A stretch of 6,769 nt of DNA from the IMG/VR virus record IMGVR_UViG_2617270964_000002; one strand, given 5' to 3'. Under the pieces are notes generated by a model. That model was not told where the DNA came from and ran no database searches. It saw nothing but the letters and a program-made list of their open reading frames with translations. Numbering within the stretch: the first letter of the stretch is position 1; every line of letters starts with the position of its first letter. Positions 1 through 6,769 of this stretch are shown one piece after another. Made by a program: the position numbers and the translations under genes. Source of the stretch: a virus. Taxonomy: Duplodnaviria > Heunggongvirae > Uroviricota > Caudoviricetes.

Positions 1-1098
1 ATGCTGAAGCAGTTCCGTACTGACCTTTCCGGATTTAACGCGCAGTGCCATGGCGGCAGTGCTGCAGTTATACCGTGGATTTGTGGCGACACGACGTATT
101 ACTGGAAAAACACATACGGCACACAGTATGACTCCGTCTACGGCGCGTACAAAAACAGGGAGAGCGACAACGTTTTCTTTGTGCCGTTCATGACCGACGG
201 TAACGGCAACAACACGCCCACCAACTTACCGGCAGAAGACCCGGATATTGCTGATGCAGGTTATTACGGCGCGCAATCCCGTAGTAATGGTAATTGGGTA
301 TCGTCAAATCGTCCGACACATTTCAGTTCATGGGCGCGCAGGGGCATTATTTCGGATCGCCTGGCAACCGCTATTCTGAACGCAGTTGGTCGAACCAGCG
401 CCTTCATCAGCGGTACCGCACCGGAGATTAAACCCTCGCCCGGCGGCGACACGCCATCGGGGCCGTCTGATGGTGACACATCCGTTCGTACAGTCTCCCT
501 GCTGCCGACAGCCGGAGAGGCTGCTGCGCAGGGCTGGACCATCACCGGCGGCAGTGTTGCGCTGGAAGATGGTGTGTTTAAGGTTACCAAGCAGAGCAAT
601 AAAACCTGGTCCCTGATGCATCCGGTGGATGACGCAGTCTCCCTGCTGACACGGGGTGGCAGACTGAGCTGTAAGTTTCGACTGTCAGGCGCACTGACCA
701 ACAACCAGTTCGGTCTGGGAATTTATCTGTATACCGATGTAGCGTTACCTGACGTCGTGGTGATGACCGGGACTGGTAACCCGTTCCTGATGTCGTTCTT
801 CACCCAGACCACAGACGGCAAACTGAATCTGATGCATCACAAGAAAGCCGGAAACACAAAGTTGGGCGAGTTCGGGAATTACAGTAACGACTGGCAGACG
901 CTGGAGCTGGTGTTCACCGCCGGCAGTGCCACGGTTACTCCGAAACTGAATGGAGTGGCTGGCCCGGCATTCCAGGTCATAAAAGACAGTCTGACACTGG
1001 GGCTGAATGCGCTGACGTTAACTGATATCACTAAAAATGCCACGTACGGCGTCGATATCGGCAGCCTGGTGCTGGAAATCAATAATCCCGCAGCATAA
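1..1098 (+). CDS. Hypothetical protein, unassigned; possible accessory (moron) gene. N-terminal Tyr/Gly/Asn-rich region, a Pro/Gly/Ser/Asp linker (approx. aa 140-165, SGTAPEIKPSPGGDTPSGPSDGDTS), and a C-terminal region of about 190 aa that looks beta-rich. True start may lie upstream of the window.
   Basis: Uninterrupted 365-codon ORF ending TAA at 1096-1098, only 23 bp before the R start, so co-oriented and probably co-transcribed. Codon usage and GC resemble neighbouring genes. I recognise no family; the ORF begins exactly at base 1, so the N-terminus is uncertain. Confidence 0.55.
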   Translation: MLKQFRTDLSGFNAQCHGGSAAVIPWICGDTTYYWKNTYGTQYDSVYGAYKNRESDNVFFVPFMTDGNGNNTPTNLPAEDPDIADAGYYGAQSRSNGNWVSSNRPTHFSSWARRGIISDRLATAILNAVGRTSAFISGTAPEIKPSPGGDTPSGPSDGDTSVRTVSLLPTAGEAAAQGWTITGGSVALEDGVFKVTKQSNKTWSLMHPVDDAVSLLTRGGRLSCKFRLSGALTNNQFGLGIYLYTDVALPDVVVMTGTGNPFLMSFFTQTTDGKLNLMHHKKAGNTKLGEFGNYSNDWQTLELVFTAGSATVTPKLNGVAGPAFQVIKDSLTLGLNALTLTDITKNATYGVDIGSLVLEINNPAA

Positions 1099-1121
1099 GG
1101 AAGAGCAGGAGAGCAAAACAG

Positions 1122-1589
1122 ATGCTTAAGACAAACAGTCTGCGAGAGTCCATGCTTCATGGGTGTCGGTGGTGCCAGGCTAATCCCGAGAAATTCACCA
1201 TTTTCGTGGAGAGCGGCAACATTGAAACGACCGGGGAAGCGCCCTCGTTTGTTTACCGCTATCAGATGGTGATGTTTGTCATGGATTACGCCGGAGAGCT
1301 GGACGACCTCACGCTGCCGCTGCTGGCGTGGTTATCCGAAAATCAGCCACAGTTGTTGCTCAACCCTGAGCGTAATCAGGACATCAAATTCTCCGCCGTT
1401 ATCAATGACGATGACAGCGCCGATCTCCTGTTTACGCTCCCCCTGCGGGAACGCGTTCGCGTCACGCGCAGCAGTCAGGGCACACCGCAGGCAGAACACC
1501 TGCCGGAGCCAAAACCCCGCCTGCCATCTTCCGAAGGCGACTGGTCGCATATATTCCAGGATGTGACGTGGGGTGAAAGCGATGGATAA
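1122..1589 (+). CDS. R: Tail completion protein, P2 gpR-like
   Basis: 155-aa ORF; ATG at 1122 preceded by AGGAGAG (1107-1113). Translation (MLKTNSLRE...PLLAWLSENQPQLL...) resembles remembered P2 gpR in length and motifs, and it sits directly upstream of the S homologue. Confidence 0.8.
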   Translation: MLKTNSLRESMLHGCRWCQANPEKFTIFVESGNIETTGEAPSFVYRYQMVMFVMDYAGELDDLTLPLLAWLSENQPQLLLNPERNQDIKFSAVINDDDSADLLFTLPLRERVRVTRSSQGTPQAEHLPEPKPRLPSSEGDWSHIFQDVTWGESDG

Positions 1590-2217
1590 GGCATTCACCC
1601 GCGTGGATGAAACCTTTGAGACCATCCGCGACAGCCTGAATCAGCAGGCCATCAATAACATCGCCAGAAAGCTGGCACAGGATTTACGTCGCGCCCAGCA
1701 GGCACGTATCCGGTCACAGAAAGCGCCGGACGGGACCGCATGGACACCACGCAGACGCCGCGTAACCCGGATACAGGAGCGCATTCGCTTTATCTGGAAT
1801 AACGAAGCACGCACGCTGAAAAACTGGCATCACGACACGGGGAAATACGGGCGAACCATTACCGGGTGGGATGAGGATAAAAACAGCATCCGCACGTTTT
1901 ACCGGGATGACATCGACCGTTTTCTGGAAATACGCACCCGGCGCATCAACCAGGACAGCACAAAGCGCGTCCCCATGTTCGTAAAACTGCGCACCGCCCG
2001 CTACCTGAAAGCCCGTGCAGATGCCTCCGGTGTGACGGTGGGTTACAGCGGCGTGGCCGCACGTATTGCACGCGTTCATCAGTTCGGTGAGCGCGATCAG
2101 GTTGCGCCGGGCATTTTCACCGATTACCCGGTACGTGAGCTGCTGGGTATCAGCCAGGCAGATGAGCGCCTGATTTATAACACGGTGCTGGGCCGGATTG
2201 CGGAGGCTGTACGGTGA
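1582..2217 (+). CDS. S: Tail completion / virion morphogenesis protein, P2 gpS-like
   Basis: ORF in frame from GTG 1573; I prefer ATG 1582 (MDKAFTRVDE...), which overlaps the R stop (1587-1589). Translation has motifs I recall from gpS-family proteins (PRRRRV, KLRTARYL, ARIARVHQFG). Start codon choice is uncertain by 9 nt. Confidence 0.8.
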   Translation: MDKAFTRVDETFETIRDSLNQQAINNIARKLAQDLRRAQQARIRSQKAPDGTAWTPRRRRVTRIQERIRFIWNNEARTLKNWHHDTGKYGRTITGWDEDKNSIRTFYRDDIDRFLEIRTRRINQDSTKRVPMFVKLRTARYLKARADASGVTVGYSGVAARIARVHQFGERDQVAPGIFTDYPVRELLGISQADERLIYNTVLGRIAEAVR

Positions 2218-2795
2218 GCGCAGAACTCATGCGACTGCTGAGCAACATCATCCGCACCGGGATCATCTCTGAAGTTGATGAGAAGTCCTGGCGCGTGCGC
2301 GTTCGCAGCGGCGAACTGGAAACAGGCTGGTTGCGCTGGAACACCACGCGCGCGGGAGCCTTCAATGTGTGGCTGCCGCCATCACCAGGCGAACAGGTGG
2401 TAATTGTCTGCATTGGCGGCAACCCGGAAACCGCCATGATAATTGGCAGCCTGTGGAGTGATGCCAGTCCGGCCCCCGGCAAAAGCCTGAAAGAAATCGT
2501 GGTCAGCGCGCCGGATGGCGCGGTGTTCCGCTACGACGCAGACGCTGGCGCACTGAGCGCCAGCGGCATGAAAACAGCCACCCTGCAGGCATCCGTCAGC
2601 GTGACACTGGATACGCCCGTCGTGGAATGCACAAACCTTCTGAGAACAGCGACGCTTGACGTCACAAAAGGGGGAAAGATGAGCGGCAATATCACGCACA
2701 GCGGCGGCAATTTCACCTCAAACGGTATCACAGTGCATACGCATAAACACGGTGGCGTTAAAGGTGGCAGCGATTCGACAGGAGGCCCGCAGTGA
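2214..2795 (+). CDS. V: Baseplate assembly protein V (central spike), P2 gpV-like
   Basis: GTG start at 2214 overlaps the S stop TGA (2215-2217) as GTGA; GGAGG lies 8 nt upstream. Translation (IIRTGIISEVD..., GEQVVIVCIGG..., VECTNLL..., VHTHKHGG) parallels remembered P2 gpV, including the C-terminal His-x-His-x-His motif. Confidence 0.88.
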   Translation: MSAELMRLLSNIIRTGIISEVDEKSWRVRVRSGELETGWLRWNTTRAGAFNVWLPPSPGEQVVIVCIGGNPETAMIIGSLWSDASPAPGKSLKEIVVSAPDGAVFRYDADAGALSASGMKTATLQASVSVTLDTPVVECTNLLRTATLDVTKGGKMSGNITHSGGNFTSNGITVHTHKHGGVKGGSDSTGGPQ

Positions 2796-3142
2796 CAACC
2801 CGCTACACAGGAATGAATCCGGACGGGACGGGAAACCTGAACGATACGGAGCACCTGAAACAGTCAGTCAGGGACATCCTGACCACCCCGCTGGCCAGCC
2901 GGGTTATGCGACGGGAATATGGCAGCCTTGTACCTGATTTGATTGACGAACCCATGAATAACACCACGCGTCTGCAATGCATGAGTGCTGCCGTGATTGC
3001 GCTGACACGATGGGAACCCCGCATTGCCCTGGACGCCATCGACGTTGTCTGGAAGGCAGGAGGCCGCGCCGGGGTGACGCTGTCGGGCACTGTCATGCAG
3101 ACCATGCAGAATGTTGAGTTAACCATCACGCTGAGGGAGTAA
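2792..3142 (+). CDS. W: Baseplate wedge protein W (GPW/gp25 family, related to T4 gp25 and T6SS TssE)
   Basis: GTG start at 2792 overlaps the V stop (2793-2795); AGGAGG at 2779-2784. N-terminus MTTRYTGMN... closely matches my memory of P2 gpW (MTARYLGMN...); internal RVMRREYGS motif; 116 aa. Confidence 0.9.
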   Translation: MTTRYTGMNPDGTGNLNDTEHLKQSVRDILTTPLASRVMRREYGSLVPDLIDEPMNNTTRLQCMSAAVIALTRWEPRIALDAIDVVWKAGGRAGVTLSGTVMQTMQNVELTITLRE

Positions 3143-3145
3143 ATC

Positions 3146-4042
3146 ATGCCTGCTGTTGACCTTTCCCAGTTACCGGAACCCGCCATCATCGCGGAGCCTG
3201 ATTTTGAGGCAATTCTGGCTGACACAAAGGCCATGATGATTGCGTCCTATCCTGCCGAACAGCGTGAAGCCGTCTCCGCCGCGCTGGAGCTGGAATCGGA
3301 ACCCCTGAACGTTATCGCTCAAACCATGTCTTTTCGTGAAATGCTGTTACGCCAGCGGGTTAACGAGGGCGCACGCGCCTGCATGTTAAGCCACGGTTCA
3401 GGGACAAATCTGGACAACCTCGCGGGCAATATGAACACAAAGCGCCTGGTTATCACTCCGGCAACGGATACCACCGACGCGGTGATGGAGAGCGACACCT
3501 CGCTGAGATTGCGGGCGCAGCGGGCGTACGACGGCCTGAGTGTTGCTGGCCCGTCAGGTGCATACGAGTATTTTGCCCGCAGCGCCAGCGGTCTGGTGCG
3601 CGATGCGCGGGCTATCAGTCCGTCTCCGGCCTGTGTGACGGTTTCCATCCTGTCCACTGAAGGAGACGGCACAGCAACGGAGGCGTTGCTTAATACCGTT
3701 CGCGCCGTTCTGAATGCAGAGGATACCCGCCCGGTGGCCGACCGCCTTACTGTACAGAGCGCCAGAATCGTGACATGGCGGCTGAATGCAAAACTGTACT
3801 TTTACCCCGGCCCGGAATCCGAACCTATTCTGGCCGCGGCGGAATCGTCATTCAGGAAGTGGCTGGCTGAACAGGGGCTTATCGGTCAGGACGTGGCGTT
3901 GTCCGCCATTGCTGCCGCACTTCATGTGCACGGCGTGCAACGCGTGGAGATAATCGAACCCACACAGAATATGGCCATCAGCGACATACAGGCGGCGCGC
4001 TGTGAGTCATTTACCATCAGCGAAGGTGGGCGCAATGAGTAA
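3146..4042 (+). CDS. J: Baseplate assembly protein J (T4 gp6 / TssF-like)
   Basis: ATG 3146 with GGGAG 7 nt upstream; 298 aa. Translation (MPAVDLSQLPEP..., ESEPL..., RPVADRLTVQSA..., HVHGVQRVE) tracks remembered P2 gpJ along its length. Confidence 0.9.
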   Translation: MPAVDLSQLPEPAIIAEPDFEAILADTKAMMIASYPAEQREAVSAALELESEPLNVIAQTMSFREMLLRQRVNEGARACMLSHGSGTNLDNLAGNMNTKRLVITPATDTTDAVMESDTSLRLRAQRAYDGLSVAGPSGAYEYFARSASGLVRDARAISPSPACVTVSILSTEGDGTATEALLNTVRAVLNAEDTRPVADRLTVQSARIVTWRLNAKLYFYPGPESEPILAAAESSFRKWLAEQGLIGQDVALSAIAAALHVHGVQRVEIIEPTQNMAISDIQAARCESFTISEGGRNE

Positions 4043-4643
4043 TTCACTGTTACCGCCATCAGCCAGCAGTTTCATGCGTTGTGCCGAAGCCGTCGGAACA
4101 CGCATTACAGACATTCCGGTAGACCTCAATACGCTGTGGTCGCCGGATACCTGCCCGGTGCATCTGCTGCCTTATCTCGCCTGGGCGTTTTCCGTTGACC
4201 GCTGGGATCGCAACTGGCCGGAAGAGACAAAGCGACAGGTAATTCGTGATGCATGGCTGATACACCGACACAAAGGGACCATCAGCGCACTGCGAAGAGC
4301 CGTGGAGCCTCTCGGCTACCTGATTGAAGTAAAGGAGTGGTGGCAACTCAACGAGGAGCCAGGAACATTTCGCATTGTTGTCGGAGTACTTGATCAGGGC
4401 ATCACCGATGAAATGTATCAGGAACTTGAGCGCCTTGTTGCGGATGCAAAACCAGTAAGTCGCCATCTGACGGGGCTGGCGATCAGCCTGAGTGTGAACG
4501 GAAAGATTTTCGTTGGTACGGGATGCTATCACGGCGATGCCCTGACGGTTTATCCCTACACCCCGGAGTCCATTATTGTCGAAGGGGATTATTTCCCTGC
4601 CCCGGCCATTCATTTAATTGATAATCTGAGAGTAAACGCATGA
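4035..4643 (+). CDS. I: Baseplate/tail protein I (TssG-like)
   Basis: ORF opens at 4002 but the likely start is ATG 4035 (MSNSLLP...), overlapping the J stop at 4040-4042. The motif LLPYLAWAFSVDRWD and HRHKGTISALRR match the gpI family as I remember it. Confidence 0.88.
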   Translation: MSNSLLPPSASSFMRCAEAVGTRITDIPVDLNTLWSPDTCPVHLLPYLAWAFSVDRWDRNWPEETKRQVIRDAWLIHRHKGTISALRRAVEPLGYLIEVKEWWQLNEEPGTFRIVVGVLDQGITDEMYQELERLVADAKPVSRHLTGLAISLSVNGKIFVGTGCYHGDALTVYPYTPESIIVEGDYFPAPAIHLIDNLRVNA

Positions 4644-6238
4644 CAGTGAAATACTACGCCATTCTGACTAATCAGGGCGCAGCACGACTGGCTAACGCGA
4701 CGATGCTCGGCAGTAAGCTGAATCTGACGCAAATGGCCGTTGGTGATGCAAATGGTGTGTTACCAACACCAGACCCTGCACAAACAAAACTGATTAACCA
4801 GAAACGCATTGCACCGCTGAATCTTCTGAGTGTTGACCCTAACAATCAGAGCCAGATTATTGCGGAGCAAATCATCCCTGAAAACGAGGGAGGATTCTGG
4901 ATCCGTGAGATTGGTCTTTATGATGATGAAGGTGTACTCATTGCGGTGGCAAACTGCCCGGAAACGTACAAACCGCAGTTGCAGGAAGGCAGTGGACGCA
5001 CCCAGACTATCCGCATGATTCTGGTTGTCACGAACACCGAAGCCATCACGCTGAAAATCGACCCGTCTGTGGTTCTGGCAACCCGCAAATATGTGGATGA
5101 TAAAATCTCAGAGCACGAACAGTCACGACGTCACCCGGACGCCTCGCTGACCGCAAAAGGTTTTACTCAGTTAAGCAGTGCAATTAACAGTGAATCAGAA
5201 ACACTGGCCGCAACACCGAAAGCAGTTAAGGCTGCATATGACCTGGCTGACGGGAAATATACCGCCCAGAACGCCACCACAACACAAAAAGGGATTGTTC
5301 AGCTCAGTAGCGCCACGAACAGCACGTCTGAAACGCTGGCAGCGACACCAAAAGCTGTTAAGGCGGTAATGGATGAAACGAGCAAGAAAGCACCATTAAA
5401 CAGCCCGGCACTGACCGGAACGCCAACAACACCAACAGCGCCACAGGGGACTAATAGTACCCAGATCGCAAGCACGGCTTTCGTTATGGCCGCGATTGCC
5501 GCACTTGTAGATTCGTCACCTGATGCACTGAACACGCTGAACGAACTGGCTGCGGCGCTGGGCAATGACCCGAATTTTGCGACCACCATGACTAACGCGC
5601 TTGCGGGTAAGCAACCGAAGGATGCCACCCTGACGGCGCTGGCGGAGCTTGCTACATCAGCAGATAAACTCCCATATTTTACAGGAGCAGATCGTGCCGC
5701 GTTAACCGCGTTGACAAGTGTTGGACGTGCCATTCTTGGTAAAACCAGCACTCAGGGAGTTCTTGATTACCTTCATTTGGAAGAAACGGTAAAACAGGCC
5801 GCTGGAGCGATGCAGAAAAGTGCAAACGGTGGTGATATTCAGAATGTGGCCGCTTTCAGAAATGCCCTTCAGCTTGGTACGGCGGCACTGGCCTCTATGG
5901 GAGTGGGAAAAAATCAGGTATTGAGTGCATCAGATTTCTCTTTCTTCGCCGGTGGAAATGGCTATTTGTATATTCCTTGTCTTGCAACCACAGATAATCC
6001 GGTAAAGATAATGCTGCAGTGGGGAACCATACGGACACGCGGCGGAGAGAATAATATCTACAACCTGCCCTATGCATTTCCAACCGCAGGTCTGTGGGCT
6101 ATGGGATGCAGAGCAGCGAATGGCTACAGCCAGTCAATGAATGTCAGTATAGAAAATCGGTCTCAAATCAGGATCCAAAACTGGGCGCCAGCAGGGGCGG
6201 TAGAAGATTGCTGTTTCTTCGCTGTGGGGTATTTATGA
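4640..6238 (+). CDS. H: Tail fiber protein H: conserved P2 gpH-like N-terminal shaft (approx. aa 1-375) fused to a shorter, AT-richer C-terminal distal domain
   Basis: ATG 4640 overlaps the I stop as ATGA. 532 aa. N-terminus (MTVKYYAILTNQGAARLA...MAVGD...GGFWIREIGLYDDEGVLIAVAN...) and the repeated LSSA(T/I)NS(T/E)SETLAATPKAVKA motif are hallmarks of P2 H / Mu S-type tail fibers. The C-terminal part of roughly 150 aa has no resemblance I recognise, as expected for a receptor-binding tip. Confidence 0.9.
   Translation: MTVKYYAILTNQGAARLANATMLGSKLNLTQMAVGDANGVLPTPDPAQTKLINQKRIAPLNLLSVDPNNQSQIIAEQIIPENEGGFWIREIGLYDDEGVLIAVANCPETYKPQLQEGSGRTQTIRMILVVTNTEAITLKIDPSVVLATRKYVDDKISEHEQSRRHPDASLTAKGFTQLSSAINSESETLAATPKAVKAAYDLADGKYTAQNATTTQKGIVQLSSATNSTSETLAATPKAVKAVMDETSKKAPLNSPALTGTPTTPTAPQGTNSTQIASTAFVMAAIAALVDSSPDALNTLNELAAALGNDPNFATTMTNALAGKQPKDATLTALAELATSADKLPYFTGADRAALTALTSVGRAILGKTSTQGVLDYLHLEETVKQAAGAMQKSANGGDIQNVAAFRNALQLGTAALASMGVGKNQVLSASDFSFFAGGNGYLYIPCLATTDNPVKIMLQWGTIRTRGGENNIYNLPYAFPTAGLWAMGCRAANGYSQSMNVSIENRSQIRIQNWAPAGAVEDCCFFAVGYL
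5156..5368 (+). repeat. Tandem intragenic repeat inside H: two 27-aa cores (KGFTQLSSAINSESETLAATPKAVKAA and KGIVQLSSATNSTSETLAATPKAVKAV) spaced 132 bp apart
   Basis: Read directly from sequence: cores at 5156-5236 and 5288-5368, 22/27 aa identical, with many synonymous codon differences (e.g. tta agc agt vs ctc agt agc for LSS). Confidence 0.85.
5760..5785. other. Candidate Hin/Gin/Cin/Pin-type invertase crossover site (26 bp imperfect dyad TTCTTGATTACC-TT-CATTTGGAAGAA); speculative
   Basis: TTCTT-N16-AAGAA dyad of the same length and outer sequence as the hix/gix consensus (TTCTTGAAAACC-AA-GGTTTTTGATAA as I recall it). It lies at the point in H where the conserved shaft ends and composition drops. 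The partner site would lie outside the window, so it cannot be confirmed here. Confidence 0.25.
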
Positions 6239-6651
6239 ATAAATTTTATCAGGGTGTTTTTTATCCGGAAGCACTTAAAGATGCCTATGTTTCTGCCGGA
6301 ACGTGGCCGGAACATGCTGCCGATGTGAGTGATGAGGCAATGGCTGTTTATAGCCAGTACCCACCGGAAGGGAAAATGCTGGGAACGGATAATAATGGTT
6401 ATCCTGTGTGGGTTGACATCCCCTCCCTGTCGCCTGAAGAACGAGTTGCCCGGGCTGAGCAAACACGACGTGATTTACGTACGCGGGCGGATTCTGAAAT
6501 AGCCTGGCGACAGGATGCTGTTGACGCGGATATCGCGACGGATGAGGAAACCGCCGCGTTGTCTGAGTGGAAGAAGTACCGGGTACTGTTAATGCGGGTT
6601 GATACAGCAAAACCCGTATGGCCTACACCTCCGGGGGAACAGGCCAGTTAA
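6235..6651 (+). CDS. tfa: Tail fiber assembly protein (Tfa; P2 gpG / Mu U-like chaperone)
   Basis: ATG 6235 overlaps the H stop (6236-6238) as ATGA; 138 aa. C-terminus carries the Tfa signature (DEETAALSEWKKYRVLLMRVDTAKPVWPTPP), comparable to the ...W..Y.VL..RVD...P.WP ending of remembered gpG. The listed ORF start at 6094 is an out-of-frame overlap with H and is not used. Confidence 0.8.
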   Translation: MNKFYQGVFYPEALKDAYVSAGTWPEHAADVSDEAMAVYSQYPPEGKMLGTDNNGYPVWVDIPSLSPEERVARAEQTRRDLRTRADSEIAWRQDAVDADIATDEETAALSEWKKYRVLLMRVDTAKPVWPTPPGEQAS

Positions 6652-6769
6652 TATGCTCAGGGTTGGTTGTCACATCAACCGCCTTAACTTCATTCTTATA
6701 CGCCAGCCATGCCGACAGTTTAGCTCTGTTGGTGTCGCTGATTTCATCCAGCATTAGTTCCGTTCGCCA
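6623..6769 (-). CDS. Partial CDS (C-terminal 48 aa plus stop) of a second, inverted tail fiber assembly protein (tfa'); N-terminus lies beyond the right edge
   Basis: Only one - strand frame is open across 6769..6626, stop TAG at 6625-6623. Translation ...LMLDEISDTNRAKLSAWLAYKNEVKAVDVTTNPEHINWPVPPEV* has the same Tfa C-terminal signature (DE..., L.AW..YK, VD, WP.PP) as the + strand tfa. The two genes converge and overlap by 29 bp (6623-6651). Confidence 0.6.
   Translation of the reverse strand, partial: WRTELMLDEISDTNRAKLSAWLAYKNEVKAVDVTTNPEHINWPVPPEV

Follow-up and report, generated by a model that had tools for sequence, protein, structure and literature searches.

The question raised by this locus is the identity of a long open reading frame which lies just upstream of gene R in a P2-like late operon. 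The window, which is the whole stretch of 6,769 nt that we have analyzed, begins with a stop-free frame on the + strand. It runs from base 1 to a TAA codon at 1096–1098 and comprises 365 codons. The probability that a frame of this length stays open by chance is about (61/64)^365, roughly 2e-8, and strong homologues are found besides. Both this frame and the 23-bp gap which separates it from R, as reported in a preliminary description of the window, are confirmed in the sequence. The tail-completion gene R (1122–1589) is a homologue of P2 gpR (Pfam P2_Phage_GpR, PF06891, 133 bits), and it is followed in the window by S, V, W, J, I, H and a tail-fibre assembly gene. A scan of positions 1–2300 for promoters and terminators gave counts which are not above those of shuffled sequence. 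The starts of two downstream genes are ambiguous from the sequence alone: a mechanical ORF list places V at a GTG at 2214 (called at 2229) and I at a GTG at 4002 (called at 4035).

In the preliminary description the frame was presented as an unassigned ORF of 365 amino acids in the slot used by the distal lysis genes of P2. Our main conclusion is that positions 1–1098 are the 3' part of a prophage nanS-p gene, which is a cargo insertion in the late operon of a P2-like prophage (Peduoviridae). We give this reading a probability of about 90%. The features of this region are collected in Table 1.

Table 1. Coordinates of the nanS-p-type fragment, its parts and the spacer which follows it in the window.
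Feature	Position	Strand	Remarks
3' 58% of nanS-p-type gene, codons 262–626 and stop	1..1098	+	5' side cut by contig edge
C-terminal third of SASA/SGNH esterase, window aa 1–127	1..381	+	phmmer: 3pt5 chain residues 210–332 of 337, E 7.1e-30
SGNH block with putative catalytic His, RPTH	310..321	+	His is window aa 107 and full-length His368; aligns with NanS RSSH
Interdomain linker, window aa 128–169, core SGTAPEIKPSPGGDTPSGPSDGDTS, Pro/Gly/Ser/Asp-rich	382..507	+	between two PDB-matched stretches
Lectin-like jelly-roll, window aa 170–362	508..1086	+	6yp6 E 8.4e-31; PF20350 (DUF6645) 70.1 bits, cut-off 27
Spacer to gene R	1099..1121	+	23 bp, Shine-Dalgarno-like AGGAG at 1107–1111

An exact-sequence match identifies the window as an entire draft contig (GCA_000601135.1, JHDG01000044.1, range 1–6769), so the frame is cut by the contig edge. 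When the first 1,300 bases are compared by megablast with complete E. coli genomes, identities of up to 99.7% are found, and all the matches fall inside a 1,881-bp CDS annotated as "DUF6645 domain-containing protein". The best DNA match (99.7%) is with positions 12001–13300 of prophage L001, within the CDS at 11218–13098. The frame corresponds to codons 262–626 of this 626-aa gene, with three amino acid differences across the overlap. The PHROGs family phrog_143 is aligned to the 365 residues at profile positions 262–631 of 634. The ATG at base 1 is an internal codon, Met262, which aligns with a Met in NanS. In other words, the frame belongs to a longer gene, well characterised and found in near-identical prophages, of which it forms the 3' end. 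The draft assembly is broken inside this gene, which produces the apparent 365-aa ORF: A contig-edge fragment with a chance in-frame ATG had mimicked a novel gene, and this false lead may now be removed.

A probable explanation may be given for the break. The left-hand contig of this prophage comes to an end, in other draft assemblies, at about amino acid 96 of the gene, which is where the multi-copy esterase region begins, and the genomes carrying the sequence have a median of 2–3 copies. Equivalent breaks in other drafts, together with this copy number, make a repeat-induced assembly break the simplest cause, and the multiple copies of the esterase region among prophages are the probable reason for the interruption. 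The first 783 nt of the gene lie outside the window, and we infer from its relatives that they are intact in the source genome.

The full-length protein of the relatives has three Pfam domains, all of them above the cut-offs: DUF1737 (residues 4–53), SASA (75–271) and DUF6645 (477–587). The DUF1737 match (PF08410), in a segment outside the window, scores 30.5 bits with a cut-off of 24, and the SASA match (PF03629) scores 49.3 bits with a cut-off of 24.8. Residues 69–388 match E. coli NanS, also known as YjhS (PDB 3pt5), with an E value of 1.9e-123, while residues 431–623 match the NanS-p structure 6yp6, the C-terminal domain of vb_24B_21 from phage phi24B, with an E value of 3.9e-30. The portion contained in the window can hardly be called unassigned, since it is matched by Pfam DUF6645 (70 bits), phrog_143 and two PDB entries. 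The three-part layout which had been proposed for it is correct in that it contains the last 127 amino acids of the esterase, a linker and a beta-sandwich. Its N-terminal region, which had been described as rich in aromatic residues, Gly and Asn, does not constitute a separate domain: It is the tail end of the esterase fold. An NCBIfam search gave nothing meaningful, and PADLOC found no defence family for the full-length protein at E <= 0.01. We have found no signal peptide-like or transmembrane segment, the highest Kyte-Doolittle mean over 19 residues being 1.27.

Three sequence motifs are conserved in the esterase domain. The GQSN block (G80-Q81-S82-N83) of the full-length relatives is nearly invariant in our alignment A3. 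It lies upstream of the contig edge, and its presence in the source genome is probable, judging from these relatives. The second motif is WMQGEFD, at residues 240–246: W240, M241, Q242, G243 and D246 are invariant in A3, and E244 is nearly so. Its QGE core (242–244) is located 18 codons upstream of window base 1, hence outside the window. The third, RPTH-FSS, corresponds to window amino acids 104–110 (RPTH is 365–368 in the full-length protein); it aligns with RSSH-FSS of 3pt5, and its His is invariant in A3. Of these three motifs, the His block alone is found within the window. The RPTH/RSSH/RASH block has been described for NanS-p (PMC10462455), and the (H)QGE block III builds an inverted oxyanion hole in SASA/CE6 esterases (PMC9487903). 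By homology, the Ser of GQSN would be the nucleophile, its Gln would form the oxyanion hole together with QGE, and the His of RPTH would act as the base. A catalytic acid has not been identified in NanS.

The preliminary description also suggested that the last 190 amino acids or so form a lectin-like or ConA-like beta-sandwich, and the structural models agree with it. An AlphaFold model of window amino acids 160–365 has a pLDDT of 94.7, and its top Foldseek match is 6yp6, with a TM score of 0.90 and 35% identity. After it come the lectin domain of V. cholerae sialidase, which binds sialic acid (2w68), L-type lectins (VIP36, ERGIC-53, legume) and the binding domains of clostridial neurotoxins. 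A carbohydrate site formed by Y510, Y515, Y540 and F611 has been proposed for vb_24B_21. In window numbering these correspond to F237, Y242, F267 and L333: An aromatic residue is present at three of the positions and Leu at the last, so the protein may have a different ligand specificity. The AlphaFold model of the full-length protein (P0008, 17 sequences) has a mean pLDDT of 62.9, with values below 50 in the N-terminal and esterase parts and in residues 393–421 of the linker region, and it was set aside. The esterase assignment is based on the sequence matches to 3pt5, not on this model.

The lectin domain is also found in a different context. The 556-aa protein P0057, annotated as a "terminase large subunit", combines PF05876 with the DUF6645 lectin domain and is 83% identical to the window protein over 58% of its length. 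A deletion in a lambdoid prophage may have fused the two parts, or else the protein is an artefact of annotation or assembly.

The genomic setting was studied in relatives with a complete gene. In L001, L002 and vB_EcoM-705R2 (Peduoviridae), the gene order is X, holin, M15 endolysin, DUF2570 (LysB-like), LysC, the 626-aa gene, R and S. The 626-aa gene and lysC share bases, the start codon of the former overlapping the stop codon of the latter. In P2, lysC overlaps R, with no gene between them, and the same overlap is found in the sister prophage L007, which has the same lysis genes and an empty site. From this overlap it follows that the 626-aa gene is an insertion. When filled and empty sites are aligned, the left joint is found approximately 56 nt before the lysC stop and the right joint at the start of R. 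According to these sequence comparisons, a 1.9-kb gene has been inserted between lysC and R, and neither P2 nor sister prophages have it. The earlier suggestion of a moron-type extra gene with respect to P2, co-oriented with the late genes and tightly packed against them, is upheld by the comparison with P2 and L007.

The insertion also modifies the neighboring gene: It replaces the last 18–24 codons, approximately, of lysC (L001 11165–11221 versus L007 2633–2698). The C-terminal tail of the o-spanin is ...AELDKRIAELTHQTGVTQ when the gene is present and ...ELLEQRRLQRLNNEDNNHAEN when it is not.

The junction between lysC and the P2-type DUF1737 is found in 376 of 5,426 complete E. coli genomes; about 660 further genomes match only the lysC part of the junction query. 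The O104:H4 outbreak genomes carry the P2-borne allele, and five loci homologous to SASA are present in C227-11. Some genomes contain damaged copies. P0122, P0123 and P0124 are proteins of 108–112 amino acids, in which a P2-type DUF1737 comes first and the reading frame is then lost across the GQSN region: These copies of the gene are frameshifted, through either pseudogenisation or sequencing errors.

Previous work on related enzymes allows a function to be proposed. NanS and the NanS-p alleles of EDL933 and O104:H4 have been reported as active esterases on Neu5,9Ac2 (PMC8065619, PMC10017367), and the NanS-p proteins of these two strains are described as freeing acetyl groups from mucin glycans and as allowing growth on Neu5,9Ac2 (PMC8065619, PMC5923452). 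By homology with them, the intact enzyme would strip O-acetyl groups from 9-O-acetylated sialic acids (Neu5,9Ac2), either free or on mucin glycans, and the lectin-like C-terminal domain might target it to carbohydrate. "Host-interaction protein", one of the labels suggested for the frame, is a fair one for a sialate O-acetylesterase. The position of the gene suggests that the protein would be made together with the P2 late genes and released when the cell lyses, either in free form or bound to the virion; the predicted late expression and the absence of a signal peptide or membrane segment point to the same route. Since lysogens do not express P2-type late genes, a benefit to the lysogen is not obvious.

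Several other explanations have to be weighed. A lysis accessory or spanin replacement at the lysB/lysC position, as the preliminary description had considered, has practically no probability. Its location beside the lysis cassette is all that speaks for it, and in relatives the slot is already occupied, with LysB-like and LysC-like genes immediately upstream. In fact, the lysis cassette of these relatives is complete, with holin, M15 endolysin, the LysB-like DUF2570 protein and a LysC which carries the lipobox LTGC, so the gene does not replace a spanin. The full-length N-terminus shows neither a transmembrane segment nor a lipobox, the protein has strong homology to esterase and lectin domains, and neither Pfam nor PHROG gave a match to a lysis protein for the frame. 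These domain assignments and the intact cassette rule out a lysis or spanin identity. The gene is a sialic-acid O-acetylesterase gene of NanS-p type, a cargo which has already been described, and not a lysis or tail gene. It is also quite improbable that the gene is truly 5'-truncated in the source genome, by an IS or a deletion, and that a stand-alone lectin-like product of 365 amino acids starts at Met262. Disrupted copies do exist: Proteins of 342–380 amino acids have been called on megabase contigs (P0028, P0034), IS-disrupted nanS-p alleles have been reported (PMC10462455), H50 is another example, and there are also the frameshifted P2-type N-terminal fragments mentioned above. Nevertheless, the match between the contig and nanS-p begins at base 1 and leaves zero foreign bases, which argues, not decisively, against an IS insertion. 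Furthermore, no Shine-Dalgarno-like sequence precedes Met262 in the relative L001, the fragment would begin in the middle of a fold, at residue 210 of the 337 in the NanS chain (3pt5), and matching contig breaks are found in other draft assemblies. A 365-aa fragment of this kind, which does not include the nucleophile, would be catalytically dead. If the gene is intact, as we think, its enzyme might still act on bacterial rather than host glycans, removing O-acetyl groups from O-antigen or polysialic-acid capsule and thus aiding phage adsorption or release. This has been raised as a possibility for NanS-p (PMC8065619), the lectin-like domain resembles sialic-acid-binding modules (2w68), and the gene would be expressed with the virion genes, judging from its position. 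On the other hand, the substrates demonstrated for the family are Neu5,9Ac2 and mucin glycans, and the gene is dispensable, since sister prophages which have the same tail genes do without it. We consider a role on bacterial glycans unlikely.

A more serious alternative is that the esterase is not a nutrient-releasing moron: It would be a virion component, placed on the hexons of the P2-type capsid through DUF1737, where it would aid the binding or penetration of sialylated mucus, or would be self-cleaved and shed. There is a precedent in phi24B gp84, a NanS-p protein which is reported to decorate the capsid, to be anchored by DUF1737 and to be self-processed at both linkers (bioRxiv 10.64898/2026.04.10.717836). 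The gene is located inside the structural and late operon, and its esterase and lectin domains are shared with the lambdoid allele P0001, while DUF1737 is divergent (about 33% identity). We have compared the anchor (NanS-p residues 31–54) in seven phages covering four families of major capsid protein, or MCP (L012, L013 and L015–L018 are among the loci), and this segment of DUF1737 sorts with the head module, not with the remaining protein. For example, phage 1717, which has the HK97-type MCP of Pankowvirus, is 96% identical to the Traversvirus F451 in SASA and 99.5% in the lectin domain, and 29% in the anchor. When the same phage is compared with YYZ-2008, the anchor is 87.5% identical and the MCP 99%, with 71% and 34.5% for the enzyme. 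The motif "..AGYGAEFIQ.." is common to all three Traversvirus-type phages; P27 and PhiR12_3 have a Phage_capsid_3 MCP according to Pfam, and F451 was assigned by taxonomy. The P2-like allele has an anchor type of its own. This sample comprises seven phages only, and phage 434, with a lambda E-type MCP, has the anchor type of Pankowvirus, so anchor and head do not track each other strictly. Moreover, in phi24B binding occurs only at the flat hexon in the centre of a T=9 facet. To our knowledge, the T=7 capsid of P2 has no flat central hexon of this type, which counts against capsid display. The DUF1737 part of the gene also lies outside our window. On balance, virion display in place of nutrient release is a real possibility, at less than even odds.

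The tracking of the anchor subtype with the head module, rather than with the enzyme, is suggestive (n = 7), and the lineage-specific N-terminal domain of the P2-borne protein hints at capsid display. A more general proposal may be made, very tentatively, as it is in our opinion doubtful: P2-like virions may carry the esterase and its lectin domain on their capsids, as has been reported for the podovirus phi24B, with DUF1737 acting as an exchangeable anchoring adaptor whose loop co-varies with head type, and with an enzyme cassette which could move between unrelated lineages. If DUF1737 is a capsid anchor, virion-displayed enzymes which modify sialic acid would be more widespread than currently described.

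The other end of the contig deserves a comment. Its last bases (window 6623–6769, - strand) are inside an inverted fragment of the tail-fibre assembly gene (Caudo_TAP). The related prophage L001 has a 229-nt inverted repeat (17883–18111 and 19277–19505, 96% complementary) which flanks the distal tail-fibre genes, and a recombinase (19569–20168) adjoins this segment. The repeat and the recombinase point to an invertible tail-fibre segment, which probably explains the 3' break of the contig. The crossover core of Din-type invertases (AAACCNNGGTTT) is found in the window at chance level. In the tail fibre gene H (4640–6238), homology to the closest complete genomes ends at about 5780–5818. The nearest relatives have other versions of its distal, receptor-binding part (approximately 5780–6238, with a weak Gp53-like_C match) and of the assembly gene: This is a typical host-range cassette exchange.

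We may now compare this locus with known systems. The late operon of P2 (lysA-lysB-lysC-R-S) is the closest reference for its surroundings, and the flanking genes R, S, V, W, J, I, H and G are found in P2 order. Unlike P2, the lineage described here uses an M15 peptidase as endolysin. For the protein itself the comparison is with the chromosomal NanS of E. coli (YjhS, 3pt5), which shares the SASA/CE6 SGNH fold and the GQSN, QGE and His blocks. NanS differs in that it has a single domain, with 337 residues in the crystallised chain, and lacks both DUF1737 and the lectin module. The literature assigns its gene to the nanCMS operon, and not to a phage.

The laboratory phage 434 also has a full gene of this type (L012 1322–3172; OL657226.1 43456–45306), annotated as "SASA family carbohydrate esterase" and located just upstream of the holin gene. 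It sits inside a region annotated as 434B non-homology.

A literature search of limited reach brought up no paper which deals with DUF6645 or describes nanS-p from P2-like phages. When the 71-aa DUF1737 of P2 type was used as the query of a word-indexed protein search, all the matches were near-identical fragments. The closest counterparts are the NanS-p proteins of lambdoid phages, both Stx and non-Stx, such as those of 933W (L0105/z1466), phi24B (vb_24B_21/gp84), H-19B and 434 (CPT_434_71), which have the same architecture of DUF1737, SASA esterase, linker and lectin-like jelly-roll. At the DNA level, the yjhS/nanS-p genes of Stx1a-converting phages, H-19B, YYZ-2008 and phage 434 are approximately 86% identical to the P2-borne gene from nt 207 onward. 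In the lambdoid allele P0001, identity is 92.7–100% over both segments of the esterase and over the linker; the lectin domain is 97.4% identical, and DUF1737 only about 33%. The DUF1737 of the P2-borne protein belongs to a subtype of its own, in which the anchor loop is longer than in the lambdoid one. The C-terminal domain is only about 38% identical to the crystallised domain of phi24B. Both lambdoid and P2-borne nanS-p genes are found in the late region, beside the lysis cassette, although their placement differs: The P2-borne gene, carried by a myovirus prophage, comes after the lysis genes, between lysC and R, while the lambdoid one is upstream of S, between stx/Q and the holin gene. In summary, nanS-p is best known from Shiga-toxin lambdoid phages, but it is also a common cargo of P2-like prophages, including those of the O104:H4 outbreak lineage, where it has a precise insertion site between lysC and R and an N-terminal domain specific to the lineage.
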